From Clostridia bacterium (GTDB taxonomy: Bacteria > Bacillota > Clostridia > UMGS1883): a DNA stretch of 24,331 nt. Location: assembly GCA_051866635.1 (NCBI GenBank), contig JBJDXJ010000061.1:1-24331 (forward strand). The letters run 5' to 3'. The position numbers and the translations under genes are program-made. The stretch's first letter is position 1. Each line of letters starts with the position of its first letter. Shown here one piece after another: positions 3,036-20,603 of this stretch. The notes under the pieces were generated by a model that saw only the letters and a list, made by a program, of their open reading frames with translations, ran no database searches and was not told the origin of the DNA.

Positions 3036-3160
3036 GCAAAGTCCTCCAATCCTCACTATTCATATAAATATCTATCCTATATTTAATCACATTTCCCATC
3101 TAAAATCAAGTTGAATTTTCCACAAACTATCATATTCTTTCCTTTACCTTTTTATAACGC

Positions 3161-5380: not shown

Positions 5381-5812
5381 TTACAATTCATCTACAAACT
5401 CATATTTAACATCCATATTACAAGGAATAGCCGCCCTTACCTTCCACTTATCAAAATTTGGTTCTTCAAGGGTAGTTCTAAAGGTAAAGGTCATGGTTTC
5501 TCTGTCGTAGGAAAGGTCAAATCTCCTTTCTTCAAACCAACAAGTGAGAATACTTTTCATTACACTTAAAGTCAGAACATAATGTCGTTGCAAATACCTT
5601 TTAACTGCTATACTACGGTCAATGCTTGAATAATCATTAACCATATCGTTCCATTTAGTTTCACTGACACTGTCAAGATATATTTCACTTAACATATCCC
5701 TTATATCACCCATAAATATATCTATTAATTGCTGCTGAACATTTGCAATGGTCTGTATTTCTTTAAACTCCCTAAGATAATCAGGATAATTTTCAAGAAT
5801 TGTCCTTTTCAT
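5381..5812 (-). CDS. Baseplate wedge protein (XkdU/DUF2313-like), short
   Basis: Follows and overlaps the baseplate J gene; N-terminal YPDYLREFKEIQ and C-terminal AIPCNM resemble this family. Confidence 0.65.
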   Translation of the reverse strand: MKRTILENYPDYLREFKEIQTIANVQQQLIDIFMGDIRDMLSEIYLDSVSETKWNDMVNDYSSIDRSIAVKRYLQRHYVLTLSVMKSILTCWFEERRFDLSYDRETMTFTFRTTLEEPNFDKWKVRAAIPCNMDVKYEFVDEL

Positions 5813-6842
5813 TTATCGTCACACCACCCACCAGTTGATTTTCCTTCAATGTAATGCGATTTGGTTCACCGTTAATGGAAATAACGTTAACATCCGTTGC
5901 TCCCAATCCGAAGAAGTAATCTTCAATCACTCTGTCCCTTAAAACAATCCTGTCTTGTTTATCCCATGTTTTATTAAGTTCTTTTAAAATCACAGGCAAG
6001 TAGGTTCTTGCCTGTCTGAGATACCCTTTTGTCTTACTTGCAGGCTCCAACTCCAGAACAATGTCAATATCAACCATTTCAACGGATTCCACCGTAACGC
6101 TGTGTCCTATGGGCAAAAGTCCTGTCCCCTGACCGCTTGTTTCTTCAGGGTCCAAAGTCTCCTTCACATATTTAACCAGTTCATCAGGTGCAACAGAGTA
6201 GTCAGAGCTTGTAATAATAACCTTTACCGTACCTATCCCGTCTGCTACAGGGACAACCCTTATGCCTCCCACATTGGCAAATGACTTTATAGCATTGCGG
6301 TAATAGGCAATGTTTGCCGCACACACAGGATTGCGTAATTGTTCTATATATCTTTCCCTGAAAGTATCATCATCCTCAACATCTTCACCCGGTGAAATAA
6401 TCTTTGTAATACTCATGATAGCACTGCTTTTATCAACCTTCGCCATTACCTCTCCTATATATTCATTTCCCTTAATACCGGGGGTCTGGCACTCCGCAAG
6501 GTAGTAATCGTCATTAACGCTTATAACCACATACTCACAATCCGATGTATAAAAAACATCTCCCTCATTATAGCCTGTATCCCCCTCAATTCTCACAATA
6601 GCTTTTGTGGCAGCTTTTCTTTCAACCCCAAGTATTGCGGCAGCCTTGTCCATATATGTTCCGGATGCAGTAATAACAAAAGCATTATTCTCTACCTCTT
6701 TAACATTAGAATAAGCATCGGCTAAAGCAGCAGCAAAGGCTGATGTTGTTATATATGCAAGGGAGCCTTCTCTTTTGTCTATATCGTCCCCCATTCGGTA
6801 AAAACAAATTCTCATTATGTCATCATAAGTCCTGGCCTTCAT
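5793..6842 (-). CDS. Baseplate J-like protein (XkdT/gp47 family)
   Basis: IDKREGS, TASGTYMD, GEDVEDDDTFRERY, GIGTVKVII, GLLPIGHSVTV; position in the tail module. Confidence 0.9.
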   Translation of the reverse strand: MKARTYDDIMRICFYRMGDDIDKREGSLAYITTSAFAAALADAYSNVKEVENNAFVITASGTYMDKAAAILGVERKAATKAIVRIEGDTGYNEGDVFYTSDCEYVVISVNDDYYLAECQTPGIKGNEYIGEVMAKVDKSSAIMSITKIISPGEDVEDDDTFRERYIEQLRNPVCAANIAYYRNAIKSFANVGGIRVVPVADGIGTVKVIITSSDYSVAPDELVKYVKETLDPEETSGQGTGLLPIGHSVTVESVEMVDIDIVLELEPASKTKGYLRQARTYLPVILKELNKTWDKQDRIVLRDRVIEDYFFGLGATDVNVISINGEPNRITLKENQLVGGVTINEKDNS

Positions 6843-7235
6843 TTACGCCACCTCCGTTTCGTAATCTATAGTTCCGTAAATAGACGACACCTTAAACTTA
6901 ACAGCTATTTTCTTTCCAATCCTACTGAACTCAAAATCTGAAATTGACAGAATTCTGTCATCGCACAGCAGGCTGTCTTCTATGGCATTTTTAATTTTCC
7001 CCATAGCCTTCATATACCCACCATCCAAAGCATCATTGTAATCTGTTCCGAAGGAATGGGGAAAAATCGGATAGCGATATCTTTCAGTTAAAAGTGCAAT
7101 ACAAATTGCCTGCTTTAAAGCATCAACTCCCTCAATCATGCCCCCTATACACTTTTTGTCAAAATCTATTTTAAAATCCTTATCGGGCAGTCTTTCCGTA
7201 CTGCCCATGTATGTCATACTTGTTTTAGGTAACAT
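6843..7235 (-). CDS. Baseplate / sheath-initiator protein (XkdS/DUF2634-like)
   Basis: GVDALKQAI..L.TERYRYPIF..SFG and L.DDRI.SISDFEF; sits just upstream of baseplate J. Confidence 0.85.
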   Translation of the reverse strand: MLPKTSMTYMGSTERLPDKDFKIDFDKKCIGGMIEGVDALKQAICIALLTERYRYPIFPHSFGTDYNDALDGGYMKAMGKIKNAIEDSLLCDDRILSISDFEFSRIGKKIAVKFKVSSIYGTIDYETEVA

Positions 7236-7248
7236 ATTTCAACTCCTG

Positions 7249-7548
7249 TCACAGTTTTGCAAAAGCAATATAACCTTCTCCGCCCTTTTGCCTTAGTAAA
7301 ACAACACCATCCCCGACTTTAAGCCCCTCTTGTATAACGATTGTTCTTTCATACATCCCTATGCTTATGTTACATTCTCTGTATAAAAGGTTATCAGTCA
7401 CACTAAGGAGTTCTTCGTCTAAAATAAGCTGTCCCACTTCTATTTTTACAGGCTCAACGCTTACAACAGTGCCAAATAAAACTTCGCAAGGCATTGATGC
7501 TTCATAAGCTTTCATGGCACATTCTTTTACCGCATCTGCTATATTCAA
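7249..7548 (-). CDS. Baseplate spike-region protein (XkdR/DUF2577-like)
   Basis: FGTVVSVEPVKI and GLKVGDGVVLLRQKGGEGY; synteny. Confidence 0.85.
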   Translation of the reverse strand: MNIADAVKECAMKAYEASMPCEVLFGTVVSVEPVKIEVGQLILDEELLSVTDNLLYRECNISIGMYERTIVIQEGLKVGDGVVLLRQKGGEGYIAFAKL

Positions 7549-8546
7549 TCCAGATTCCTCCCGTCTAAATAAAGGTTTGTCTTATAGAGGTTATTTTCAA
7601 ATATATGCATCGCCTTTTTTACCCGCATATACCCATCCAACGCTAAATCCCCCATACTGAGCCTTACATAAACAGAACTTCCCGGAATTAACTTAGAATT
7701 ACCACGAACCCCCATCAGAACAATTTCACGGTTTATGTGGTTATATTCATCAAGCATGTTCTTAACTATGGATGTATTGTAGTTTCCGCCATCTAATCTC
7801 TTGGATAAAACCAGCGTCCCCCATTTGTTCATGCTTTCTTCATCACTATCTTCCATAATAATAACAGCACCCATTCTTGATGAATTAACATATAACTGTA
7901 TTTTGTTATACACCCCGCTGTCAATTGTATCGGTGTAAACATAGTTTTCAGCCTGTGATGCGTCTATTAAAACATCAGTTACAAGATTATCCTCATTTTT
8001 TAAGGCCAAATATCCGAAATCGTCAAAAACGATATATCTTTCCCCGCTGTTTTTCCTCACATCGTTACACCCCTTTGCCACAACATCCAAAAGAGAAACA
8101 GACTGGCTTGCCATTGGAGAAAGCATCACCTTACACGGGTCAACATCACCTATATTCAAATCGTTCTTTTTTGCAATTGTACGCACAGTTTCTTCAAGGC
8201 TCATAAACCCTCTCTGATAGCACACCTTGTTTTTCATATATCTCATCTGGTCATATGCCACCACGTCAATAAGCCCGTCTTTATCACGGCTTTTTGAAAA
8301 AACATACCCAAAAAAAATCCCTTCCGAACCGAACTTAACACTTACAGCATCCCCTTGGTTGAAGCTTACAACATTATCCTTCAAAACCGTGAACTTAAAT
8401 TTTGACGCACAAAATTCTTCTTTTTCCACAGTGGCTTTCCCCACCAACACAACTGAGTAAACCTTAAGATTGCTCTTTATATAAACCTTAAGCTTTTCTT
8501 CCCCGTTTTCCACCAAAAATACTTCTCTGCTTTTTGTATTATCCAT
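7545..8546 (-). CDS. Baseplate hub protein (XkdQ/YqbQ-like)
   Basis: IFFGYVFSK, VAYDQMRYMKNK, YIVFDDFGYL, YNKIQL, KWGTL; synteny. Confidence 0.85.
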   Translation of the reverse strand: MDNTKSREVFLVENGEEKLKVYIKSNLKVYSVVLVGKATVEKEEFCASKFKFTVLKDNVVSFNQGDAVSVKFGSEGIFFGYVFSKSRDKDGLIDVVAYDQMRYMKNKVCYQRGFMSLEETVRTIAKKNDLNIGDVDPCKVMLSPMASQSVSLLDVVAKGCNDVRKNSGERYIVFDDFGYLALKNEDNLVTDVLIDASQAENYVYTDTIDSGVYNKIQLYVNSSRMGAVIIMEDSDEESMNKWGTLVLSKRLDGGNYNTSIVKNMLDEYNHINREIVLMGVRGNSKLIPGSSVYVRLSMGDLALDGYMRVKKAMHIFENNLYKTNLYLDGRNLD

Positions 8547-8549
8547 AGC

Positions 8550-9185
8550 TTACTCCCTTAACCTCAACACATCTCCGGGATTAATATCATAGGGCGGTTT
8601 AATGGAATTAAGGTTTGCAATATATGTATATTTCTCCCCATCGTCAAAAAACCTCTTGGCAATAATCCATAAAGTATCTCCTTGTACCACCGTATACGTA
8701 TAAGGCACCTCAAGGGTACTGTTTCTCTCAGAGTAGCGTGCAATATTTTCCTCTGATGCAAATTTTGTCTCCACATTTCTGTATTCCGTAAGAACAACCT
8801 TTGCTTTCATATCCATCCCGTTTTCCGCATCTTCAGTTATTGAAATCTCATCCACAACGACCAACATATTTGTAAGATATGTTTTATTTATATCAGGAAA
8901 AGTACGGTAAACATCAAACCATACCGGCTCATTTTTTGCGGCAATAGCGTTTAATGCATCTACAAATTCGGTACCGTCTATAAACTTTTCCTCGTACCGT
9001 GCAAAGGGATATTCACTCATGGGAAGAAGAAGTTCAAAGCTTATCTTCTTAAGACCTTTTCCTCCCACATCCACAACAAAGCTTCCGTCTACAAGATTGT
9101 ATGTTTTATTACTGTTTTTCGTTTCCATCACTATTTTTTCCGGAGCCACGGGAAACAGTACATGGTCAAGATAAAGCATATACAT
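8550..9185 (-). CDS. LysM-domain tail tube initiator (XkdP-like)
   Basis: N-terminal LFPVAPEKI; C-terminal LysM YTVVQGDTLWIIAKRF..INPGDVLRL. Start moved to ATG 9185 after AAGGAG. Confidence 0.9.
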   Translation of the reverse strand: MYMLYLDHVLFPVAPEKIVMETKNSNKTYNLVDGSFVVDVGGKGLKKISFELLLPMSEYPFARYEEKFIDGTEFVDALNAIAAKNEPVWFDVYRTFPDINKTYLTNMLVVVDEISITEDAENGMDMKAKVVLTEYRNVETKFASEENIARYSERNSTLEVPYTYTVVQGDTLWIIAKRFFDDGEKYTYIANLNSIKPPYDINPGDVLRLRE

Positions 9186-9186
9186 T

Positions 9187-9342
9187 TTATTTATTCTCCT
9201 TCCCATCAAGGTAAATATCGATTGCCGCAATTATGAAAGCCTTTTCATTTTTATCCATCAAGGCAAACTGCATAGGCAAAATTTTAAGATTGTGAAGGCA
9301 CCAGTATGCGTAAAGTGCATCACCGTCGCCTTCACTTATCAG
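9187..9342 (-). CDS. -1 frameshift extension (gpT-like) of the tail assembly chaperone, 51 codons
   Basis: Slippery A-AAA-AAC (9348-9342) just before the TGA; the -1 frame reads LISEGDGDALYAYWCLHNLKILPMQFALMDKNEKAFIIAAIDIYLDGKENK*. Confidence 0.8.
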   Translation of the reverse strand: MISEGDGDALYAYWCLHNLKILPMQFALMDKNEKAFIIAAIDIYLDGKENK

Positions 9343-9752
9343 TTTTTTGCTTTTTCTATCCTTTCACTCATCGCAATATCAAACCCGTTAATGCTCTGCA
9401 CCTTTTTTATAAACTCCTGGTACTCTCCGGGCTTGTCAATCAATGCAACCAATAAATCCTCCGGGCTTGTCACGCAGTAGGAATCCTGAAGCGACGCATT
9501 GTACAAAGGCGGAAAAACTACACTTGCCACCGCAATTTTTCTCATATATGCCCCATAATCAAATCTTGTACCCCTGCCCTTTATTTCACGGATACAGTCT
9601 TTTCTTATTGCCTCATCCTCATCTGTTGTAATACTTCTTAATTCCCACATAAGTGCCTCTCCCTTTTCGTCACACAAACTCTTTGTGGCAGGGAAGAACA
9701 CATTTTCCCTCTTTATTTTATTTTCTTTCAGAAAAAGCTCCAATCCACTCAT
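9339..9752 (-). CDS. Tail assembly chaperone (XkdN-like)
   Basis: WELRSIT, ASVVFPPL.NASLQDSY, PGEY, EKAKN end; directly downstream of the tube gene. Confidence 0.85.
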   Translation of the reverse strand: MSGLELFLKENKIKRENVFFPATKSLCDEKGEALMWELRSITTDEDEAIRKDCIREIKGRGTRFDYGAYMRKIAVASVVFPPLYNASLQDSYCVTSPEDLLVALIDKPGEYQEFIKKVQSINGFDIAMSERIEKAKN

Positions 9753-9767
9753 TATCTTACTCCCTTA

Positions 9768-10241
9768 TCAAAGCATGCCGTTTAACGTATCAAATTTTTT
9801 CGGCATCTTAAAATCTTCAAAAGTTCCTGTAATATTTTCGGAAAGATAATCGCCCTCTGCATCAAACTTTGCAAGTATACCTCCGTCAATATTACAACCT
9901 GTAAATACAATTGTCTGGCTTCCGGCATTGGAGGCAGGATCGTAATTGGTCACCTGAATGTCAAAATAAACATCCTCTCCGCTTTCCTTATAGTCCATCA
10001 AAAGCTGACGGAATACAGACTGATTATAATGTGCCTTTCCTTTAAATACACCTGTCCATCCGTTGGCTTTGTTTCCCTTGCCGGTCTGACCTAAAATTGG
10101 TACAGAAGTCTTATTCTTTGTGATTGATGCCTCAAAATTTATCATCTGCATAAAATTGTATCTGTTTGAATTAACAGTAATATAACATTCCGCCAATGAT
10201 GCCGATACAGCATCACTGCCATTCATAGTAATTGCAGCCAT
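9768..10241 (-). CDS. Tail tube protein (XkdM-like)
   Basis: DAVSASLAECY, VPILGQTGKGNK, YFDIQVTN.DP.S, DGGILAKFDA, TFEDF. Confidence 0.92.
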   Translation of the reverse strand: MAAITMNGSDAVSASLAECYITVNSNRYNFMQMINFEASITKNKTSVPILGQTGKGNKANGWTGVFKGKAHYNQSVFRQLLMDYKESGEDVYFDIQVTNYDPASNAGSQTIVFTGCNIDGGILAKFDAEGDYLSENITGTFEDFKMPKKFDTLNGML

Positions 10242-10251
10242 ATAAATCCTC

Positions 10252-11556
10252 CTATTCTAAAGTTGTTGTAATGTAAAGCTGGGCCATGGAATTAATGGGA
10301 CAGATTGCACTTGTAATAACAACACTTGTCTTACTTGTGCCCTTTTCAACTGAAATATCCTCGTCCTTGAAGTTTTCAATAGCTCTCATCTTCTGAAGGG
10401 ATTTTCTATGTTCTACCAAATCGTTCCACAAGGATATTCTTCCCGCTTCATCATTTGGCACAATTCCAAGATATTTTGTCTTGAAAAGGTACGCATCATC
10501 ATATGCAATCTGGTCCACAAGCCTTACAGTCTGGTTTTCACAGAATATTTCTCCCACTTCAGCAGAGGTTGTCACCAAGGAGTTAATATCAGCTAAAACT
10601 CTGTATTCATTGCCAACCTTGTGGAAAACAAACTTCCCCTTCTTGATACATTCCTCCAGCTCGCTCTGGGTATATGTTGCATACAGATAATAATTTCCTG
10701 AATATGCATGATTTACAAGGCTCTTTCCCATCTTACATCCTGCACTTGCCCCTGCCACATACCATACAAGCTCGGCTTCGTTTTTTACGCCTTTAAAAAC
10801 TGCATTATCAACATTTATAACGCCTATATCATCAGCTTCGCATCTGTAAAGCACGCTCTGGAATTTTACGCCTCTATCCTCTCTCATACGCTTAGTGAAA
10901 GCCGCAATGAGGTTATTTACCGTACTGTCCACACTGGCAACTGCCAACACGTTAAAGCTTACGGTTTCTATACAATCCAAAAACTCCTGATAATCTTCGC
11001 CCTTTATAACAGCATCACCGCCGCCTGTCATACCTACAGCACCGCCCGGGGTAAGTGTTGCGGTTTTATCCCATACTACAAAATCATTGTCTGTAAGCTC
11101 GGATGCACTTTGAACAGTCTGTACATCCTTCTTTATTCCGTTATAATATGTGATTACATCATAATACTTACTGTTATCAATATTTCCTGTTACCTTCACC
11201 TGTATGTTATTGCCGCATTTACCACTGCATGCTGCCGTACCGTAACTGTTTGAAGCCTTTACACCGTGGCCTAATCTGTACACGTAAACCAGTGATGCAT
11301 TCTTAAACAAATCTCTCATACCCCGAAGGTTGTCGTGAATACATGAATAGCCAAAATATTTTATACTGTTCTTCCAGAAATCCTCAACAGTAACTGCTAC
11401 AGCTTCATCCTCCTTGCCCCAGCTTAACTCAATGCCGATGGCACACACGCCTCTGTCCGATACCTCTCCGGTGGCACTTGAAGACGAAACAAAATTTATA
11501 TATGTACCGGGCAACAACTTATTATAATTAGTAAAACTGCCTCCGCCCAAAGCCAT
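10252..11556 (-). CDS. Contractile tail sheath protein (XkdK-like)
   Basis: MALGGGSF..NKLLPGTYINF, DRGV.A, VLADINSL, NQTVRLVDQIA.D, PNDEAGRISLW; 434 aa. Confidence 0.95.
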   Translation of the reverse strand: MALGGGSFTNYNKLLPGTYINFVSSSSATGEVSDRGVCAIGIELSWGKEDEAVAVTVEDFWKNSIKYFGYSCIHDNLRGMRDLFKNASLVYVYRLGHGVKASNSYGTAACSGKCGNNIQVKVTGNIDNSKYYDVITYYNGIKKDVQTVQSASELTDNDFVVWDKTATLTPGGAVGMTGGGDAVIKGEDYQEFLDCIETVSFNVLAVASVDSTVNNLIAAFTKRMREDRGVKFQSVLYRCEADDIGVINVDNAVFKGVKNEAELVWYVAGASAGCKMGKSLVNHAYSGNYYLYATYTQSELEECIKKGKFVFHKVGNEYRVLADINSLVTTSAEVGEIFCENQTVRLVDQIAYDDAYLFKTKYLGIVPNDEAGRISLWNDLVEHRKSLQKMRAIENFKDEDISVEKGTSKTSVVITSAICPINSMAQLYITTTLE

Positions 11557-11559
11557 AAA

Positions 11560-11715
11560 TTACACGCATCCTTTCATAAAATTCACAATAATTTCTTCCG
11601 CTTCCAACACTGTGTAAGTTTTATCCTTATCCAATAATGCCTCAATTGCATCAGCATATTTTCTGAATAATTCCGATTTTTTCAGCTCGTCCTTTGTGTA
11701 TCTGTACTCCTCCAT
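11560..11715 (-). CDS. Small 51-aa phage protein upstream of the sheath gene (missing from the ORF track)
   Basis: ATG 11715 after a GAGGTGA SD; MEEYRYTKDELKKSELFRKYADAIEALLDKDKTYTVLEAEEIIVNFMKGCV*; fills the gap between neighbours almost exactly. Confidence 0.8.
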   Translation of the reverse strand: MEEYRYTKDELKKSELFRKYADAIEALLDKDKTYTVLEAEEIIVNFMKGCV

Positions 11716-11719
11716 TAAA

Positions 11720-12139
11720 TCACCTCATTTTTATTTCTATAGTCTCCATCAAAGACTTGTCAGTATCATCACAATCTTTTATAAAAACATCATAAATAGC
11801 AGTAAGCGTCAGATTTCCGTCATTTTTTTCAGCCGAAATCCTCCGTCCGCGTATTCTCTCCCCGTCTTTTTCAATCATACCCATGGCAGAAAACAAATCC
11901 TCCACCACACAGTCACCCTCATACATTTTCGTGTCACTGTCGCTCATGTAATCTACCTTTACGTAAACTCTTAAGAAATATCTGTCCCCTAAAAGTGTTA
12001 CTCTTTCCACATTCTCGCATTGCACAAAAATGCACGGTTTTATAAGGCCTTGCTTTATTTTCTCCGTATATACGGGAATTTTTTCATTCGTTGCCTTTCT
12101 AATGCTATCGTAAAGCCCTTCAATTACCTTCTGAACCAT
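11720..12139 (-). CDS. Tail terminator / completion protein
   Basis: VYTEKIKQGLIKPCIFV..LLGDRY motif; position before the sheath gene. Confidence 0.7.
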   Translation of the reverse strand: MVQKVIEGLYDSIRKATNEKIPVYTEKIKQGLIKPCIFVQCENVERVTLLGDRYFLRVYVKVDYMSDSDTKMYEGDCVVEDLFSAMGMIEKDGERIRGRRISAEKNDGNLTLTAIYDVFIKDCDDTDKSLMETIEIKMR

Positions 12140-12150
12140 AACACCATCCC

Positions 12151-12519
12151 CTATGCGTAGTCCTTTGAAATTTCAATCATCACTTCATTGTGCGACGGAT
12201 AATAATTCACCACACCGCTTTTTCCGAAAACCTTTATTCTGCCACTGCTTTTTACTTCAATAATGCTTCCTTCTTTAACATCGTATTCACTTGGCAAATA
12301 AAGCTTCACCTTCTTACTGACCTTTGTTATCATGTCCCCTTCTTTTGCGGCATTTTCGCCAAATAAATATGCTTTTGCGGACACTCTGCACGGGATTGAT
12401 TTATTGACACACATCTTTATGAAAGTTGTTCTTCCGTTTTCTGTTACTGCCCTTGTTTCATAAATATCACATTCGTCACAGAAAAACTTTTCTGCCGCTT
12501 TCTTTACTTTTCTCACCAT
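12151..12519 (-). CDS. Head closure / stopper protein (SPP1 gp16-like)
   Basis: CDIYE, IPCRVS, KLYLP...VKEGS.IEV, YPSHNEV; follows the adaptor gene. Confidence 0.7.
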   Translation of the reverse strand: MVRKVKKAAEKFFCDECDIYETRAVTENGRTTFIKMCVNKSIPCRVSAKAYLFGENAAKEGDMITKVSKKVKLYLPSEYDVKEGSIIEVKSSGRIKVFGKSGVVNYYPSHNEVMIEISKDYA

Positions 12520-12869
12520 TTTACTCTCCTGAAACTTAGCATTTCTTCTCTTCCCCCGTTTAAGAGTTCATCAATCAGACTCTCCGTTTCTGTCCTGTCA
12601 CGAAAGCTGACCGACATATCGCCTTCAGTAATTGAAGCAATATCATCTTCGCCGTCATTTTCGCAGGACCTTACGGCAAGGAGATATTCTCCCGCCGCAA
12701 GATCTAAAAATACAAACCTTAGTTCCTGGGGAACAGTTTCACAGTTACATGTGTTCATAATGGTGCTCTCTGCTCTCTGCATACTGACAATAAGCTTGTC
12801 CTCATGGTTTTCAGGCACCTCAAATCCCAAATCCCACAATCTTTCTTTCAAATCCTCGCAGTTGTACAT
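12513..12869 (-). CDS. Head-tail connector / adaptor (SPP1 gp15 / HK97 gp6-like)
   Basis: I.NTCN...VP.EL, ASITEGDMSVSF, C-terminal FRRVKW. Start moved to ATG 12869 after AGAGGG. Confidence 0.8.
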   Translation of the reverse strand: MYNCEDLKERLWDLGFEVPENHEDKLIVSMQRAESTIMNTCNCETVPQELRFVFLDLAAGEYLLAVRSCENDGEDDIASITEGDMSVSFRDRTETESLIDELLNGGREEMLSFRRVKW

Positions 12870-12879
12870 ATAATCCCTC

Positions 12880-13836
12880 TTATTCCATGCTGAGGTTAGT
12901 AATAGATGCGTGAAGGAATGAAGGACCGTGAGCCAAACCAATCTGTGAATAAATCTGAATCATATCGCTTGCACCGGTCTTTGCTAACTGTTCTTCAAAA
13001 AGAACACCCTTTTCCGGTACAGCCTGGAATACAGGTGCAATATGTGCAACATCGGCAATTAAAATTGTGTCCTTAGGCATAAATCTGTCCCAGACAACAC
13101 CCATCTTGAAAAAGTCTGTTTCAATCTGATTAATGCTTACACCGCCGATAGTTTCTCTTGAACCCATAGTGGCATTGAACTGATTTGTATAAATATCAGT
13201 AATCATCTGCTTCTGGAATGCAGGAAGGAACATTACCATATTGTCAAAATATGCACCTGCTTCCGCCATTTCTCTGTAAAGGGAATCAAGCATGCTCTTT
13301 GTAAGTAAACCACCTTCTGCATCAATTGTAGTACCTGTCTTTGTAAGCTCAATCAAGCCTCTTGTCTTATTTGCATCAGAGGCACTTGTTGCCTTATTAA
13401 ATACGCCGTTAATAAAGCTGTGTTCCACATCACGTGCCATCTTTACAAGCTTGTGATGAATTTGAAAAGCCTTTTCATCTTCCACAGAATTTGCCATAGT
13501 GCTGTTTAAGCCTGACATATTTCCGCTGTTTGACATCTTCATGTATGTAAGGTTAATAACCTCCTGATGAATTTGCACCACATTAGTTTCCTGCTCACGT
13601 ACAATAAGGCTTGACTGAGGTGCAGACACTGACTTTTCTTCTGAAATTTCAGGCTGAGCTGCCTTGGGATAATCAAAAAGCACCGCTGTAGGAAACTCGC
13701 TTGACGCAGTCTGTCTGCCTCCTGTCAAACCGCCTATCATTGATAATAAAGGTGTCTGCGAGGCATCCGCCGTAAAAAGCTCACCTGCATAATTTGGTAA
13801 ATTCCAACTTGTACCTACTCCTGTTACTACTGACAT
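12880..13836 (-). CDS. Major capsid protein (HK97 fold, DUF5309/SU10-like)
   Basis: WNLPNYAGELF..TPLLSMIGG, TNVVQIHQE, ARDVEHSFING, TRGL, IETDF, LAKTGAS..QIYSQIGLAHGP; follows the scaffold gene. Start ATG 13836. Confidence 0.88.
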   Translation of the reverse strand: MSVVTGVGTSWNLPNYAGELFTADASQTPLLSMIGGLTGGRQTASSEFPTAVLFDYPKAAQPEISEEKSVSAPQSSLIVREQETNVVQIHQEVINLTYMKMSNSGNMSGLNSTMANSVEDEKAFQIHHKLVKMARDVEHSFINGVFNKATSASDANKTRGLIELTKTGTTIDAEGGLLTKSMLDSLYREMAEAGAYFDNMVMFLPAFQKQMITDIYTNQFNATMGSRETIGGVSINQIETDFFKMGVVWDRFMPKDTILIADVAHIAPVFQAVPEKGVLFEEQLAKTGASDMIQIYSQIGLAHGPSFLHASITNLSME

Positions 13837-13904
13837 AAAAAACATCCTTTCTTTTTTTTTAATTATAAATCTATATCAAACTGCCAAAGCAGTTGTATAC
13901 CACT

Positions 13905-14333
13905 TTAAATCAGCATAATTCCTTCCTGTGCCGCCTGCTGTTTTATTCTGATAGCCTCTACACTGTTCCCCTTGCTTCTTGCCTCTTTAAGCCGCATTTC
14001 ATAATCATTTTTAGTTACATCAGGCAACTTCTGTCCGCTTTGATACGGCTCAAAGCTTTTCTTTCCGCTTTCAAACAGAAACCTTGTATCCTTATTCTTT
14101 GTAAGGCTTTCAATCTGGCTTTTTATGCTGTCCATATCCCCATCCTCAAGCAAAGCTCTTACTGCCTTAATGTTTTTGGCTCCCTTATCTCTTAAAATAA
14201 GCTCCACCTGAAAATCCTTTTCAACTTGGGCAACCTTTTCTTCCCAGCTTGTACTTAAGCTGTTAAACTCACCTTCAATTACTTCCGCCACAGCTTCTTC
14301 AACACCCATGGCAATAAGCTCATTTTTGTCCAT
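13905..14333 (-). CDS. Capsid scaffolding protein (Phage GP20-like), short
   Basis: MDKNELIAMGV, GAKNIKAVRALL, SQIESL..FLF; lies between portal and capsid genes. Confidence 0.8.
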   Translation of the reverse strand: MDKNELIAMGVEEAVAEVIEGEFNSLSTSWEEKVAQVEKDFQVELILRDKGAKNIKAVRALLEDGDMDSIKSQIESLTKNKDTRFLFESGKKSFEPYQSGQKLPDVTKNDYEMRLKEARSKGNSVEAIRIKQQAAQEGIMLI

Positions 14334-15702
14334 CTGTACTACCTTCCTTTTTCTTTAATTCTTTCTGTACATCCCTTACCCAAGGGTGTTGCAAAATCAC
14401 TGTCTCTTCGGATAAAATATCCGCACTCTTTATACAGTTGTCAATTGCTTCGCTTTCATTAACAGGGCAGTCACGGTTGAATACTATTTCTGCATCCTCA
14501 TCAATAAAGCATCCGTAACCGTATTCCATCAGGTACTCCTTTGCAAAGCTTGTCAACTTTTTAAATGAATACTGAAATTCTGCCTCAATTTCACTCACAT
14601 CCAAGTCCAAATCGGAAAACATGGCTCTTATCATAAGCTGATTGGGGCTGTTACCCAAGCGGTCATTTTTTGCATCATAGCCCATAGCATTTTCAACCAT
14701 TGCACCTTTTAACATGTCTGCCATAGCCTGATAATTTCCCGCATTGAAATCTGTTGTCAATGCTTTTATATCCCCGGGCGTTCCGTCCACGGTCTTAACC
14801 TTCACCGCACCGTATGTTGACAAATTATGCCTGAATTCACCCAAATCCGTGCCGTCGTAATTCTGAAGTACAAGAATTGTATTTCTCGCATCCTCCTGAA
14901 GACAGTTTTCAAAATCCGACATAGTTTTGTTCAAAGCATCCTGTAAACTCTTTACCCTTGTTATCAAGGGAATTTCCTTTTCATTGTATTTAAACGCAAT
15001 AAGGGGTATTTCTCCCGGATATGGCATAGTATAGCTATGTTGTTCAACCTGGTGAAGTGTACCGCCTTCAAGCTCGTAAACAGTAACCCCTTCTGAAGAA
15101 TATATCTCCACCATTTCTCTCACACATTCTTCCCGTCCCTTATATCCCTCTACACTGTAAAGCCTCACCGCCCTATCCAGCTTTGTATGGTCATAATCTG
15201 ACCAGTAGGCAATAATTTCAAAAGCCGGCAATCTTCTCATTCTCAGTTTCCCTTCATCGTCCGCATAAACATAAAGCCAGCCAATCCCCATGTTAACCGC
15301 ATCACGCATAAGACATTTCATAGTCCTGAAAAAATCATTTCCCAGGACTTCTTTCAAAAGGGATATGTATTCATCATTTTCTCCCTCAATCACAAATTCT
15401 CTCCCCATAAGATAATTAACCTTCTGGTTCACAAGCCTTTGATACTGATTATTTACAATCCTGTTATTAGGCAGGTTTTCAATTTTTCTGAGCTTTCCGT
15501 CTGCACCGATTGCCATTCTTTCACTTTTTAAAATATCATGGTCCCCACGGAAATATCTTTCCCCTTCAATCATCTTCAGTCTTTTTTCATCCTTTTTCCA
15601 CAGTGCAATCTCTGCTTCAAAGAACTCCTTTTCGCTCATGACATACCCGTCACTTGTGATTTTTTCCATAATTCCATCTTTAAAGCGGGTAAAAATACTC
15701 AT
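14320..15702 (-). CDS. Portal protein (SPP1 gp6 family)
   Basis: LPNNRIVNNQY..LVNQKVNYL.G, IPLIAFKYN..E.PL, ILVLQNYDG, LSEETV..QHPWV; 460 aa. Confidence 0.95.
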   Translation of the reverse strand: MSIFTRFKDGIMEKITSDGYVMSEKEFFEAEIALWKKDEKRLKMIEGERYFRGDHDILKSERMAIGADGKLRKIENLPNNRIVNNQYQRLVNQKVNYLMGREFVIEGENDEYISLLKEVLGNDFFRTMKCLMRDAVNMGIGWLYVYADDEGKLRMRRLPAFEIIAYWSDYDHTKLDRAVRLYSVEGYKGREECVREMVEIYSSEGVTVYELEGGTLHQVEQHSYTMPYPGEIPLIAFKYNEKEIPLITRVKSLQDALNKTMSDFENCLQEDARNTILVLQNYDGTDLGEFRHNLSTYGAVKVKTVDGTPGDIKALTTDFNAGNYQAMADMLKGAMVENAMGYDAKNDRLGNSPNQLMIRAMFSDLDLDVSEIEAEFQYSFKKLTSFAKEYLMEYGYGCFIDEDAEIVFNRDCPVNESEAIDNCIKSADILSEETVILQHPWVRDVQKELKKKEGSTDGQK

Positions 15703-15715
15703 ATTTTAACTCCTT

Positions 15716-16432
15716 TTATATATAAAATCCTTCCGCACTCTTATTCATTATTTCATACAGCTTCTCTCCTACCATCTGTGCTATACTGTCCCCATCAAGT
15801 TCAAAATTACTTCTTTCCTCCCTGACTGATTCTACTCTTATTTCTCTTCCTTCTTTATCCCATCTGTCCAATGACAACTCCATCAGTCGTCTTTTTTGTC
15901 CCCCATCAAGCTTTATATCCTCATCTTTTATATATATATCTTCCCCTAAAGGCATCTCCCCTTTTTCTGCCTTTTCAAAAATGCTTTCAGTAACATTTTT
16001 TGAAACTTCAAATATATCCTCCCACTCTTTGAAATCCTTTAAAGCCTCCCATCTGAAATACTCCTCATTTTTCAAATCAAAGCTCTGTCTTTCATATATC
16101 TTTTCGAGGGCTAAATTGGCATCATCCATTTTTGCACTATCTGTTGTTGTGAAAAGATTATTTATAAAAGCTTCACTTAACAAAACCTCCTGTGTTTCTG
16201 CATCTTTTTGAAGATATGTATCTACGGCATGTTCCTCTCCCAAGAAAGGTTTCATCACCGAATTACTATTTTGAAAAGCACTGATATTTTCCCCGTAATC
16301 CGCATCCACATTCAATATTGAAGTAAGCCTTCTTAAAATATCATCTTCTTTAAAAAAGATAATTCTTGCCTCAAAATTGAAAAACAGCATAAGGTTTTCA
16401 AATATTTGTTCCCACTCACAGCTCTTTCCCAT
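15716..16432 (-). CDS. Acidic 238-aa protein; putative miniature tape measure protein
   Basis: ATG 16432 after AAGGAGG. The C-terminus (IKDEDIK...EIRVE...ELDGDSIAQMVGEKLYEIMNKSAEGFYI) resembles, from recall, tape-measure C-termini of Xkd-type clostridial myophages. Confidence 0.55.
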   Translation of the reverse strand: MGKSCEWEQIFENLMLFFNFEARIIFFKEDDILRRLTSILNVDADYGENISAFQNSNSVMKPFLGEEHAVDTYLQKDAETQEVLLSEAFINNLFTTTDSAKMDDANLALEKIYERQSFDLKNEEYFRWEALKDFKEWEDIFEVSKNVTESIFEKAEKGEMPLGEDIYIKDEDIKLDGGQKRRLMELSLDRWDKEGREIRVESVREERSNFELDGDSIAQMVGEKLYEIMNKSAEGFYI

Positions 16433-16442
16433 CTTTTCCTCC

Positions 16443-17693
16443 TTAAAATGAAAAGTTTTCTCCTTCCTCAATAGCCTCCATACCGTAACGCATGGCATCC
16501 ATCAGATGATTATATTCATCCTTAGGTCTGTTAATTTCATTCCCTATCTCATCCGTATCCCATGCGTAATTTGATATTTCTCTTATAAAATTCTCACAAC
16601 AAGGCTTTATGATAATTTCATATTCACGTATTTTGTCAATTCCGTACCGCACACTGTCAGGACCTTTTTTCGCACCTCTTATTCTCTCAAGCCCCAACTG
16701 CCTTAAACGGTCAATACTCTTCGGCTCTGCACTGTCTGCCCTTATTCTTTCCTTTCCGTAACCCTTACGGGTTATTCTCCGGTAAATTTCATCGTTACTT
16801 AGCCCCTTTTCATATATCTCGTCAAAAACATATATCTTTTTATTTTCCACATCTGTCAGACCGCAAAAAAGTGCCGTTGGGTCATTGACATACCCAAAAT
16901 CAAGACCGAAAACCGTCTTAATATTTTTATCCTTCACAATCTCTGCCACATCAAAATCCTTCTCACACCACCTGTCATATACACAGCCACGGCTTATACC
17001 CCACTCTCCCAATCCTGCTACCTTATATCGTGCAGGGTTTTTTTCTTTCATAACTTCAAACAGCTTTCTGTCTGACTCGTCCAAAAATTCATTGCACAAA
17101 TAATTGGTAGTCATTTTAAGGGTATCAGCCCTTTCTTCGTCAAAAAACCTCTTTTTCAACCAATGGTGTTCGTTCCAAGGATTAAATGTCAGTGTTATCT
17201 GTTTAAAAAGCCCCTCCTCCGAAGCACCTCTTATGGATTCATCAAGCATATCAAAATGGCTTTCATCATTAATTTCATATGCTTCTTCAATCCACATCCA
17301 GCAAAGGCATCCATAGCTCACGGTAATACTCGTCACCTTCATAGGGTCATCAAGTCCTCGAAAATATATTTTCTGTCCCGTAGGCAAGTAAACAAACTCC
17401 ATAGGTGCCTCTTTAATAAGCCAGTATTCACCTACTCCAAGCCTTTCCACCGCCCACTTCAATTCCTCAAAGCAAGAATTTTTCAGTGTTCTGTAGGTTT
17501 TTCTTATAACCAAAAGATTTGCCTTATGATACTTCATCATATTAACAATGTACCAAAGTGCCGTTGTCTTACTTTTCTTACTTGCTCTGGACCCCTTTAC
17601 CACACGGTAACGCCCCTTAAAATTCCAAAAATTTTTATATCCCCTCCCCACCACATGGGGAAGATAAATTTCATTCTTCAAGGTCCTCTTCAC
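16443..17693 (-). CDS. terL: Terminase large subunit (PBSX family)
   Basis: Walker A region VKGSRASKKS, Walker B WIEEA, TFNPW, nuclease FGLDFGYVNDP, ADSAEPKSI, NHLMDAMRY. Start is GTG 17693 or TTG 17681. Confidence 0.95.
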   Translation of the reverse strand: MKRTLKNEIYLPHVVGRGYKNFWNFKGRYRVVKGSRASKKSKTTALWYIVNMMKYHKANLLVIRKTYRTLKNSCFEELKWAVERLGVGEYWLIKEAPMEFVYLPTGQKIYFRGLDDPMKVTSITVSYGCLCWMWIEEAYEINDESHFDMLDESIRGASEEGLFKQITLTFNPWNEHHWLKKRFFDEERADTLKMTTNYLCNEFLDESDRKLFEVMKEKNPARYKVAGLGEWGISRGCVYDRWCEKDFDVAEIVKDKNIKTVFGLDFGYVNDPTALFCGLTDVENKKIYVFDEIYEKGLSNDEIYRRITRKGYGKERIRADSAEPKSIDRLRQLGLERIRGAKKGPDSVRYGIDKIREYEIIIKPCCENFIREISNYAWDTDEIGNEINRPKDEYNHLMDAMRYGMEAIEEGENFSF

Positions 17694-17973
17694 CGAATAT
17701 CACAACCTTTTTCGCTTCTTCACTCTTTATCCCAAGATATTTCATCAATAATTCCGTCGCTTTAAGGCGGTCCACCGTTTCGATATTTATTCCGGAAGGT
17801 GTTGTCTTTATAGTAGTTATAGCCTTCTTTATATCATCGGGAAGCTCATCAAAACTTTTCCACCTGATTTTTTGTTTTTCATTTTCATACACAATGTCCG
17901 CAAGGTCAGCAGGCGATGTAAAAGCAAATGCCCCAAGGAGCTCGATAATCTTTTTCTTACTTATTCTTGTAAT
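17671..17973 (-). CDS. terS: Terminase small subunit, N-terminally shortened (100 aa if started at ATT 17973)
   Basis: IIELLGAFAF.SPAD, DRLKATELL.KYLG, acidic tail VVIFGEEDLEE overlapping terL. AAGGAGG lies 7 nt before an in-frame ATT; the track's TTG 18051 has no SD. Confidence 0.75.
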   Translation of the reverse strand: MTRISKKKIIELLGAFAFTSPADLADIVYENEKQKIRWKSFDELPDDIKKAITTIKTTPSGINIETVDRLKATELLMKYLGIKSEEAKKVVIFGEEDLEE

Positions 17974-18059
17974 CCTATCCCCTCCTTCGAAAGGAATAAT
18001 AGCATGAAGTCTTGTAGCATTTCGTCCCCAACTATTTTGAATTTTTTTCAAAAAAACTC

Positions 18060-18088
18060 TTGCAATACTTTAAAACCTATGGTATAAT
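18060..18088 (+). promoter_or_regulatory. SigA promoter of rpmE
   Basis: TTGCAA (18060-65), 17 nt, TATAAT (18083-88) with TGn extension; A/T tracts upstream. Confidence 0.85.
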
Positions 18089-18153
18089 CATCGTTGTCTG
18101 TAATGGATTATAATTATTTATATACACAAATTTTCTGAAAGAGGTGAATTGTA

Positions 18154-18354
18154 GTGAGAGAAGGTATCCATCCCAACTACGGTCCTGCTACTATCAAGTG
18201 TGCATGCGGTGCAGTCTTTGAAACAGGTTCTGTTAAGGAATCTATCAATGTTGAAATCTGCTCTAAGTGTCATCCCTTCTACACAGGTAAGCAGAAGCTT
18301 GTTGACACAGGCGGTCGTGTAGAAAAGTTTAAGAAGAAGTTCAACATCCAGTAA
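18154..18354 (+). CDS. rpmE: 50S ribosomal protein L31 (zinc-binding type)
   Basis: [33 protein letters not shown]; GAGGTGA SD, GTG start. Confidence 0.98.
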
Positions 18355-18366
18355 GATGTAACTAAA

Positions 18367-18399
18367 AAGAAAGCCTTCGCATAAAGCGGAGGCTTTCTT
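18367..18399 (+). terminator. rpmE intrinsic terminator
   Basis: AAGAAAGCCTTCGC-ATAAA-GCGGAGGCTTTCTT with a U:G wobble on the + strand. Confidence 0.8.
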
Positions 18400-18519
18400 C
18401 ATTATAAAAAAGCATTTTAATGCTTCAACCCACTCAATCTCCCAATCTTGGGGGATGAAAAGGTAAGCTTTTATTTCATAAGCAAATATGCACACATTCT
18501 GCGTGCAATTTCCTATATG

Positions 18520-18569
18520 ATAAAAAAGCAAGTTCATTACCACGGCGGTTTCTGAACTTGCTTTTTTAT
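18520..18569. terminator. Long inverted repeat, probable terminator for the MerR-family gene
   Basis: ATAAAAAAGCAAGTTCA ... TGAACTTGCTTTTTTAT, a perfect 17-bp stem. Confidence 0.7.
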
Positions 18570-18689
18570 TCTATTGCCGTGCGAGAATTTCCTCGCAAAA
18601 GAGAAAAACGCACATGGCATTTCTCCTCTGTTCGCTTTAGCTAAGCTATTGCCAAAAGCGAGGAGACACTTTGTTCCCGTCCTTTTATT

Positions 18690-19142
18690 TTATTCTTCTT
18701 TATTTTTCAATCTTTTTCTTACCTTTACAAACTGTGGCGGTATTTCCTCATCACTCATTTCTCTGGGAACAGCGGCAGTACCCTTTTCTATGGCAGTTTC
18801 ATAATACCATAATTTAAAATCAAGAGCCTCTGCCATTTCATTTAAAACCTTTATTTGCTCCGTCACACTCTTTCGTTGTTTCTTTATTATATCAAGCCTT
18901 TGCTTTAGGGTTTCATCTCCCTCCATTGCCATAAGTATATATGTTTTTATATCCTTAACAGGCATACCGGTTTTTTTCATACATTCAATTGTTTTAAGCC
19001 ATTCGTAGTCCTCATCACAAAACACTCTTATTCCGCTTTCCGAACGTTCAACAAAAGGCAGTAATCCCTCTTTGTCATAGTAGCGAAGGGTTGAAGGTGC
19101 AACACCCAAAAGCTTTGCCATTTCTCCTATGGTATACAGCAT
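18690..19142 (-). CDS. MerR-family transcriptional regulator (AdhR/NmlR-like)
   Basis: YTIGEMAK..GV..STLRYYDKEGLLP HTH; IECMKKTGMPVKDIK with the conserved Cys; GGAGG SD. Confidence 0.92.
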   Translation of the reverse strand: MLYTIGEMAKLLGVAPSTLRYYDKEGLLPFVERSESGIRVFCDEDYEWLKTIECMKKTGMPVKDIKTYILMAMEGDETLKQRLDIIKKQRKSVTEQIKVLNEMAEALDFKLWYYETAIEKGTAAVPREMSDEEIPPQFVKVRKRLKNKEE

Positions 19143-19185
19143 AAAAAATATCCTCCAAAAAAAATAAAAATTTTCAAAAAAAGTA

Positions 19186-19246
19186 TTGACTTAAAGTATA
19201 CTTTAACTTTTATACTTAACTTATACTTTAAAGTATATGGTATAAT
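19186..19246 (+). promoter_or_regulatory. MerR-type promoter/operator (19-bp spacer with AdhR-like palindrome), possibly tandem
   Basis: TTGACT (19186-91), 19 nt, TATACT (19211-16), overlapping perfect palindrome TTAAAGTATACTTTAA (19191-19206). Second unit: TTAACT, 19 nt, TATAAT (19216-19246). Confidence 0.85.
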
Positions 19247-19280
19247 CAGACTTATGTCAAGAGAAACAGGAGGTATTTTG

Positions 19281-20603
19281 ATGAAAAAAAGAATTTTAGC
19301 AAAAACATTAACACTTACATTATTAGCGTCGGCAATAATTATACCTGTAAGTACAGGAGCCAAAGCACCAACAAGAGGTGAAGCTCTTGTGTCAATTATT
19401 CAAACAATAGGCAGAGAGCCGAACGCTCTTTTAGAAACAGCAGAAAATCCATTTACCGATATTTCGGATGAACTTGCACCCTATGCGGCTTATGCATACA
19501 AAAACGGAATTACCGCAGGTGTAGGCGAAAATCTTTTTGCACCTGACAGGGAAATTACAGCGGAAGAATACGCCATCATGCTTGAGAGGGCAAAAAATCT
19601 TACAAATACGGAAACAGCGAAAATTGCAGTCGCAAAACAGGGTATGTTCTCGTCGGGTGGCACAGTTACGGAGCCTATAGAGGGCGAGTTTGATGCAACC
19701 ACAAACTGGCTTGACATGACACGTGCAGGAAATACGGCTCATGTAGACCATGCGAATGTACTCTATCAGGTACCCGAAAATGAAACGGGACTGCCAATGG
19801 TATTTTTGCACGGCTACGGACAGTCCCGTATGGGATGGATGACTACTCCCGACGGAAGAGATGGCTGGTCAACATTATTTTTGAAAAAAGGACACAGTGT
19901 ATTTTTAGTAGATCAGCCACGCAGAGGCGAAGCAGGTTCTACTATAGCTATGACAAATGACTTTCTTGATACGTGGTCGGAGGATTCCAAAGAATACAAG
20001 GCGGGAGATCAGGCGTGGTATACTCATTTCCGTATAGGACGAGGCACTCCCAACAGATATGACGGTTCTCAGTTCCCTGAGGGTGATGAAGCACAGAACC
20101 AGTTTTTGCGTCAGATGACACCGAACACCGGCGGCTTTGATTTAGCGGTTAACAAAGCAGCACTTGATGAAGTATTATGCGATGTTAAAGAAATGACAGG
20201 CAAAAAGAGCATATATATAACACATTCACAGGGTTGTTCTGTTGGGTTCGAGGTTGATACCGAAAATGTTGCGGCACTTGTGGCAATTGAGCCGGGTGGT
20301 GCACCTAATGTAGGATCTGAACAGTATAACAAGCTTCTTGAAGCAAAAATCCCGATTGTATTCTATTACGGTGACTACATAGACAACGGACCGGAGGATA
20401 TTCAGTCAACATCTTTCTGGAAAGGTGCAAGGGATTCGGCTGTCGCTTTTGCGGAAAGCTATAATACAGCCGGCGGCAACTGTACAGTTGTAAACCTCCC
20501 CGATGAGGGAGTGAGTGGGAATTCACACTTTTTGTTCCAAGAGATGAACAATGCACAAATTGCAGACCATCTTGAAAAGTGGATTTTGGAAAATGTGAAA
20601 TAA
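19281..20603 (+). CDS. Exported alpha/beta hydrolase with N-terminal SLH domain
   Basis: Signal peptide; SLH-like FTDI..YAAYAYKNGITAG..FAPDREIT; FLHGYGQ, VDQPRRG, nucleophile HSQG, GNSHF. Start ATG 19281 after GGAGG. Confidence 0.8.
   Translation: MKKRILAKTLTLTLLASAIIIPVSTGAKAPTRGEALVSIIQTIGREPNALLETAENPFTDISDELAPYAAYAYKNGITAGVGENLFAPDREITAEEYAIMLERAKNLTNTETAKIAVAKQGMFSSGGTVTEPIEGEFDATTNWLDMTRAGNTAHVDHANVLYQVPENETGLPMVFLHGYGQSRMGWMTTPDGRDGWSTLFLKKGHSVFLVDQPRRGEAGSTIAMTNDFLDTWSEDSKEYKAGDQAWYTHFRIGRGTPNRYDGSQFPEGDEAQNQFLRQMTPNTGGFDLAVNKAALDEVLCDVKEMTGKKSIYITHSQGCSVGFEVDTENVAALVAIEPGGAPNVGSEQYNKLLEAKIPIVFYYGDYIDNGPEDIQSTSFWKGARDSAVAFAESYNTAGGNCTVVNLPDEGVSGNSHFLFQEMNNAQIADHLEKWILENVK

Follow-up and report, generated by a model that had tools for sequence, protein, structure and literature searches.

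A putative miniature tape-measure-derived protein encoded between the terminase and portal genes of a domesticated phage cluster in Clostridia

Few rules of tailed-phage genomes hold as firmly as the position and size of the tape measure protein (TMP) gene, on which annotation tools rely. We analysed a contractile-tail cluster in which no such gene stands at its usual site, in a Clostridia bacterium (contig JBJDXJ010000061.1 of assembly GCA_051866635.1; 24,331 nucleotides, hereafter the window). A 12.7-kb block running from position 18051 down to 5381 encodes, in order, terS, terL, a reading frame that we call orfX, portal, scaffold, capsid, two connectors, terminator, sheath, tube, chaperone, LysM protein, hub, spike, sheath initiator, baseplate J and wedge, with no integrase, replication, lysis or fibre genes within it. 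An initial annotation had proposed that orfX is a TMP that was shrunk and moved between terL and portal. The features of the cluster are as follows, all on the minus strand:

17996..18028 (−), conserved promoter-like motif GGGACGAAATG-N13-TGnTA upstream of terS, of putative function
17671..17973 (−), small terminase (TerS); Pfam profile positions 60–135 of 141; likely ATT start after a strong Shine–Dalgarno sequence (SD)
16443..17693 (−), large terminase (Terminase_3 / 3C); Pfam and PHROG
15716..16432 (−), orfX, putative miniature tape-measure-derived protein, 238 aa; open reading frame and family profiles
16343..16432 (−), orfX N-terminal motif; M1 and W7 invariant, F20 in 12 of 12 aligned sequences; unlike the TMP N-terminus
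15719..15853 (−), orfX C-terminal ~45 aa, homologous to the phrog_1068 TMP C-terminus; predicted helix at 214–233
14320..15702 (−), SPP1-type portal; Pfam and PHROG
13905..14333 (−), shortened scaffolding protein; no MuF gene between portal and scaffold
12880..13845 (−), major capsid protein (SU10_MCP); 83–91% identical across carriers
12151..12941 (−), two head–tail connector genes; tail-completion gene (Neck1, phrog_5) missing after them
11560..12139 (−), tail terminator and 51-aa phrog_966 gene; library scans
9768..11556 (−), contractile sheath and tail tube; library scans
9187..9752 (−), XkdN-like tail assembly chaperone with A-AAA-AAC slippery site and −1 extension (G/G-T-like pair); predicted frameshifting
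8550..9185 (−), LysM tube initiator (XkdP-like), directly past the chaperone extension at the empty tape-measure site
7545..8546 (−), baseplate hub (YqbQ/XkdQ-like); Pfam and PHROG
7249..7548 (−), central spike (DUF2577), 99 aa; N-terminal helix kept, HxH tip absent
5381..7235 (−), sheath initiator, baseplate J and phrog_521 wedge gene; end of the cluster, with no fibre or lysis genes after

The initial description of orfX as an acidic 238-aa frame that has a strong SD and separates terL from portal is accurate. Its SD, AAGGAGG, overlaps the stop codon of terL at 16443 and precedes the start codon by 5 nt, and the portal start follows 13 nt past the orfX stop. Aspartate and glutamate make up 23% of the protein (net charge −25), and the best 19-residue mean hydropathy is 1.03, in agreement with the earlier remark that no obvious membrane-spanning stretch is present. 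AlphaFold produces a weak model (pLDDT 67, pTM 0.28) that suggests long helices without a globular core, and Foldseek with this model returned no match at E ≤ 0.001. Searches with single sequences were equally barren: the window orfX recovered only itself among 196 candidates, the ortholog P0028 had no tblastn match in GenBank phages, and an ESM Atlas search gave nothing above 0.82. An ORF nonetheless stands at the same place between terL and portal in all 11 other genomes that carry the cluster (carriers), reached through the portal gene, and in each of the 11 genomes where the sequence has no gap the frame is uninterrupted. These relatives are 19–31% identical and are conserved at two ends only (10 gap-free relatives aligned).

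The initial annotation had suggested a profile search with the C-terminus, and a profile of the last 70 residues of orfX, run against 1.84 billion representatives, did reach TMPs. Among its 108 matches, 52 are orthologs of 153–472 aa and the others are mostly long proteins aligned at their extreme C-terminus; 36 of the 38 matches of at least 400 aa are tape measures by PHROGs, 35 of them with phrog_1068 as the best family, and the remaining two are the 472-aa ortholog and one repeat artefact. P0051 (1,918 aa, nine repeated stretches) was discarded because its score is driven by repeats. Homology between the orfX family and TMPs is limited to the last ~41–45 residues (phrog_1068 positions 665–705 of 706), and 6 of 11 orthologs match phrog_1068 directly (best E = 9e-7, profile positions 662/665–705 of 706). 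In the reverse direction, a profile was built from 15 TMP C-termini of phage loci to which the capsid gene had led. With this profile 26 of 47 orthologs reach at least 15 bits, against 0 of 940 shuffles, which never exceed 5.7 bits. The likeness that the initial annotation pointed out divides in two: the downstream tip stands, whereas the upstream IKDEDIK/EEDLK part falls outside the stretch aligned by PHROGs.

This homology holds at the level of the family and not of the window copy, which scores ~6 bits with the TMP C-terminus profile (rank 6 in its own genome, chance level) and has no Pfam match and no PHROG match better than E = 0.014; hhalign of the family profile against one prophage TMP gives a probability of 14%. 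By contrast, a family profile built without the window copy and its nearest relative finds the window orfX at E = 1.4e-12, as the sole significant match among 23,421 genome segments. We accordingly place the window orfX in the family by synteny and the leave-out profile rather than by its own TMP score. In function orfX would resemble the tape measure of a PBSX- or diffocin-type tail; by descent, only its tip is tape measure, and neither its position nor its N-terminus is that of the TMP family. A membrane-type segment (hydropathy of at least 1.6) occurs in 33 of 34 long TMPs and in none of 47 orfX orthologs.

The claim that the tail module has no TMP gene is borne out. From the chaperone stop at 9339 to the LysM tube-initiator ATG at 9185 there are 153 nt, occupied by the −1 frame chaperone extension, leaving no room for a TMP at the normal site. 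No full-length TMP was found with phrog_1068 in the 12 carrier genomes, where the sole matches are the ends of orfX (6 of 12), and none with PF10145 in this genome (G000, 96.6% complete); several carrier genomes are only 59–89% complete, and negatives for TMP, as for Neck1 below, mean 'not found' rather than proven absence.

Comparison with related ordinary phages (capsid 51–73% identical) defines how the cluster departs from its kin. In these phages terL is the immediate neighbour of portal in 29 of 29 and 24 of 24 loci, 53 of 53 in all, whereas in carriers orfX lies between them; a TMP with this tip sits between chaperone and LysM gene, directly upstream of the latter, the location that the initial annotation had named as support, in all 45 loci that span the site and in 0 of 12 carrier loci; MuF follows portal in 59 of 59 phage loci and 0 of 13 carrier loci; and Neck1, the gene for tail completion, occurs in 66 of 66 and 0 of 14, respectively, with many of the phage loci near-copies of each other. 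One of 12 carriers has an HK97-gp10-like gene, on a contig other than the cluster's. The phrog_1068 TMPs of these Xkd-type clostridial myophages are mostly net acidic like orfX, and their tail modules share the order chaperone–LysM–hub–spike–wedge, but their median length is 708 aa, compared with 238 aa for orfX, and their N-terminus differs. A metagenome scan recovered ordinary phages only (44 loci, capsid 51–73%), none with the orfX N-terminal motif. The related phage L087 has tandem full-length TMP genes of 736 and 691 aa (15657–19973), and its terL and portal genes flank a tRNA-like stretch. In the literature within reach we found no relocated TMP gene described, and none lying between those of terminase and portal.

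The proposal that a TMP was shrunk and moved is thus supported by the homologous tip and the empty site, with only the last ~41–45 residues demonstrably TMP-derived; what looks like shrinkage may instead have arisen by joining a TMP tip to a new N-terminal part and spacer. The orfX lineage breaks the rules of TMP position and size clade-wide, and distinguishes a TMP part that cannot be lost, the last ~41 residues, from a replaceable part.

The family varies in length between conserved ends, as would a spacer. Orthologs span 196–324 aa (median 233, 47 orthologs), and P0047, at 472 aa, is enlarged by internal 12-residue repeats; the alignment comprised 47 of 52 first-tier hits, the five omitted being three that lack the N-terminal motif, one whose start is extended, and the 472-aa variant. 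The middle is acidic and hypervariable, with predicted helices and no membrane segment. In four pairs with dS close to saturation, for which all figures are rough, dN/dS of the last 45 codons is 0.12–0.33, inside the 0.03–0.45 of the structural genes; the first 30 codons are looser at 0.42–0.68, and the middle is almost free of constraint (pN ~0.5). In lambda a frameshifting chaperone pair serves the tape measure, and here the chaperone with its slippery site and −1 extension is kept in all 12 carrier loci that span it, with a dN/dS of ~0.15–0.19 (three pairs with finite dS) indicating purifying selection.

We consider it probable that orfX is the working, miniaturized tape measure of a host-owned particle with a head and a contractile tail of ~35–40 nm. 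The TMP tip motif, the only such sequence in carriers, the conserved ends around a free middle, and the retention of chaperone pair and spike make a ruler likely; against it, only ~41–45 of 238 residues are TMP-like, the N-terminus is unmatched and the gene is off the TMP position. From the lambda-derived value of ~0.145–0.15 nm per residue we infer, with the initial annotation, a ruler for a tail of roughly 35 nm; over the range 0.145–0.17 nm, simple arithmetic gives 35–40 nm, or ~9 rings, for 238 aa. The upper value is that of the diffocin TMP CD1366, which has 1388 Å and 32 layers for 817 aa (PMC10996793).

A reading in which orfX is only a tip plug or baseplate nucleator would have the C-terminal helix seed the spike, hub and tube initiator and the middle measure nothing, yielding a stub or loosely set tail. 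Homology and strong constraint confined to the last ~45 residues, a middle that can hardly be aligned (mean column identity 18%) and the disappearance of the TMP N-terminus are what it would predict. Yet none of 47 orthologs has a middle shorter than ~120 residues, conservation at both ends is what a two-anchor spacer would show, and sheath, tube, terminator and chaperones are all conserved or under purifying selection; we regard a pure nucleator as unlikely.

The N-terminal motif appears to be new, with matches only inside the orfX family. It matches neither TMP N-termini nor MuF or Neck1, nor any of 18,384 segments of 49 phage loci, and among 7,993 scored candidates, weak evidence as to its origin, it was found in orthologs only. 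A new N-terminus, together with the terL–portal position and the SD overlapping the terL stop, would suit a protein re-purposed for the head or for packaging, an acidic scaffold-like or ejection factor whose TMP-like end is a leftover, and the loss of MuF and shortening of the scaffold leave a head-side job open. The scaffold measures 140–152 aa in 13 carrier loci compared with 207–264 aa in 41 phage loci (~70 aa shorter), which, with the unusually conserved capsid protein, may signal a smaller head. Such a role is nevertheless hard to reconcile with a TMP-like end that is the most constrained part of orfX, or with a tail that would keep its chaperones and have no ruler, and orfX has no match in the MuF, Neck1 and scaffold sets; we give a head factor little chance.

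If orfX is a tape measure, three chains, lying along the inside of the tube, would seed on the spike, be coated by chaperones and guide ~9 tube and sheath rings, stopping at the terminator, with the acidic helical middle acting as a plain spacer for the ~9 sheath rings. The C-terminal helices would dock on the N-terminal helices of the spike, by analogy with diffocin and phiCD508, in which TMP C-terminal and spike N-terminal helices form a bundle (PMC10996793, PMC11948020). The element spike shares their spike fold including the N-terminal helix (diffocin spike 8v3w_C, E = 1.8e-4; phiCD508 needle 9g8s_r, E = 1.9e-3). As neither the diffocin nor the phiCD508 TMP in the PDB matches the phrog_1068 C-terminus in sequence, the docking model is one of architectural analogy; PDB sequence searches with C-terminal profiles returned only flagellin and SRP54 helices, which we take as chance. 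CD1366 and phiCD508 gp59 differ from orfX in having predicted membrane helices and ends without detectable sequence similarity to its own; diffocin further differs in having no head, whereas the carrier cluster has head genes. The needle apex of phiCD508 binds metal (PMC11948020), and the HxH tip is missing from all 11 element spikes while present in 9 of 10 related phage spikes.

At the other end, the new motif would replace the old TMP N-terminus, whose partner, the tail-completion protein, is also lost. The tail-completion protein of phage 80alpha is the partner of its TMP N-terminus (PMC11661146), and a joint loss of the two here fits a replaced N-terminus. Lacking membrane helices, orfX would form no membrane channel; T4 and T5 TMPs likewise have few or no membrane segments, according to PMC10996793. 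More speculatively, a soluble orfX may need less co-translational chaperoning, allowing the gene to move upstream of the chaperone genes. Orthologs that naturally range over 196–472 aa allow a direct test of the ruler law for a contractile tail, and set measuring apart from membrane-channel formation.

The distribution of the cluster indicates to whom such a particle belongs. The orfX family occurs in 12 of 12 genomes of genera g1–g3 and in 0 of 75 other genomes of the order; the carriers are a three-genus clade of uncultured Clostridia, and the relatives are recorded as uncultured Clostridia or Oscillospiraceae, many of them from herbivore guts. In an rpoB alignment of 17 rows, the nine carriers whose rpoB was usable stand together on one side of a branch with 100/100 support, and element sheaths form one group separate from 20 phage sheaths. 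In a comparison of eight taxa based on one host gene, host and element trees agree in four of five internal splits and differ in one. The site is also constant: rpmE lies upstream in all 8 loci with enough DNA, and a ricin-domain gene and/or glnA lies downstream in 11 of 11. The integrase, replication and lysis genes, variable sites and patchy presence of a prophage are not seen here, unlike in an ordinary prophage of G032. The cluster is a domesticated, vertically inherited element, fixed in site and across the clade, and not an ordinary phage. Three IMG/VR 'viral' contigs with orfX were read as chromosome fragments, two of them with flanking host genes.

Several neighbouring features were noted along the way. 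Encoded directly downstream of the cluster, at 3211–5307 of the window, is a 698-aa protein that looks secreted and carries both an HELGH motif and lectin domains of the ricin type; it is 54–71% identical in carriers and missing at the site in G011. In three carriers (L017, L019, L022), sequence reading places a spoIIA-like operon or spo0A-like gene near, and upstream of, rpmE.

The missing integrase, replication and lysis genes could also signal a decaying prophage, in which orfX would be a rearranged, functionless TMP remnant. This genome has no detectable fibre operon and a shortened TerS; in addition the tail tube gene of carrier G009 (L020) is split into 49 and 76 aa, through assembly error or decay, and one stop interrupts the portal match of G005. 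Against decay, the orfX frame stays open in the gap-free genomes despite 19–31% identity, dN/dS is well below 1, the site is fixed with the cluster following the host tree, and the promoter motif is conserved in 11 of 12 carriers. We judge decay very improbable.

Expression signals are shared as well. In 10 of 10 carrier loci terS appears to start with ATT or ATC after a strong SD (window 17973–17971), a non-standard start that could throttle terminase expression. TerS is without ~45 N-terminal residues in G000 and G002 only, a part kept in other carriers, which we take to be the DNA-binding HTH. One or two copies of the motif, GGGACGAAATG, 13 nt and TGnTA, occur in those 11 carriers and none in 5 non-carriers, and in relatives the extra copies head a second, unlinked operon of two genes: a 108-aa phrog_1084 gene, present in all 11 other carriers and in 0 of 75 non-carriers, and a fibre-like gene of ~550 aa whose C-terminal part is variable (for example G006:C26:98815-100777 and G002:C14:94964-96956, L232 and L233; further L221–L231). 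The operon was not found in this genome's assembly, being either lost or unassembled. The common motif offers a way to find the cluster's scattered accessory genes. Holins of PF05105, the only holin family looked for, occur in 1 of 12 carriers.

With its own lysis and regulatory genes and a long tape measure at the usual place, PBSX of Bacillus subtilis differs from the carrier cluster in these respects, although both combine a chromosomally fixed head with an Xkd-type contractile tail. PBSX packages host DNA and acts as a tailocin, according to PMC12946183. A gene transfer agent (GTA), as defined in PMC9662315, packages random host DNA, is incapable of packaging its own entire genome, and delivers DNA to other cells. 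The genomic criteria for GTAs given there include caudovirus-derived, endogenized particle genes, often at several loci, and vertical inheritance with host co-diversification; both describe the cluster, a candidate GTA by these genomic features, and the particle is most likely GTA- or PBSX-like. RcGTA and FpGTA similarly have no replication genes, are inherited vertically and use two unlinked operons (PMC12946183, PMC9662315). FpGTA of Faecalibacterium also has a TerS without an obvious DNA-binding domain, according to PMC12946183; it differs from the present cluster in being podovirus-like, and the GTA tails described there are non-contractile. GTA-like packaging of host DNA has been reported in gut Clostridia with few gene clusters known, in PMC12946183 and bioRxiv 10.64898/2026.07.08.737213, making the cluster a candidate locus for it.

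More tentatively, and with the odds against it as a whole, a single myophage domestication in the clade ancestor may have produced a GTA with a miniature contractile tail that binds kin through a fibre from the second, co-regulated operon and releases host DNA at or inside the wall, to be taken up by the competence machinery of the recipient. Domestication would have cut the ruler to a third and moved it, and dropped the membrane helices, tail-completion protein, MuF and metal tip of the spike. By diffocin layer spacing, nine rings would shorten by ~13–16 nm (arithmetic; the host's own envelope may differ), and the C. difficile envelope is quoted as 37–58 nm in PMC10996793 and PMC11948020; on a bold reading, such a stroke would be too short to traverse the envelope of a Gram-positive cell. 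SPP1 particles that lack their tail-completion protein assemble as usual but let out their DNA outside the cell, according to PMC11099176, and the losses of membrane helix, tail-completion protein, MuF and HxH tip point the same way, hence the reading that DNA is dropped at the wall. A PBSX-like killer role is possible, though without the pore-forming helices proposed for diffocin. On this GTA reading, nature would have run an experiment both on the minimal tape measure and on a contractile-tailed GTA.

Two candidate supports for release and uptake were set aside. ComEC in G000 was dropped as support for competence uptake because 10 of 14 control genomes matched the family too. On G000 C26, the holins and CHAP enzyme were ruled out as a lysis module of the cluster, being part of a separate podovirus-like prophage. 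That prophage (G000:C26:92700-121798, L110 and L111, with C41:1-8000, L112) encodes a terminase, portal, capsid, a 2,977-aa protein, holin-like genes and a CHAP-like enzyme, labels assigned by sequence reading and BLAST to phage loci. In two genomes the second operon lies near a tRNA-like stretch and a sigK-like gene, and in G000 a sigK-like gene is split over C13:~2000-3100 and C15:~7200-9340 beside a recombinase, suggesting a skin-like element.
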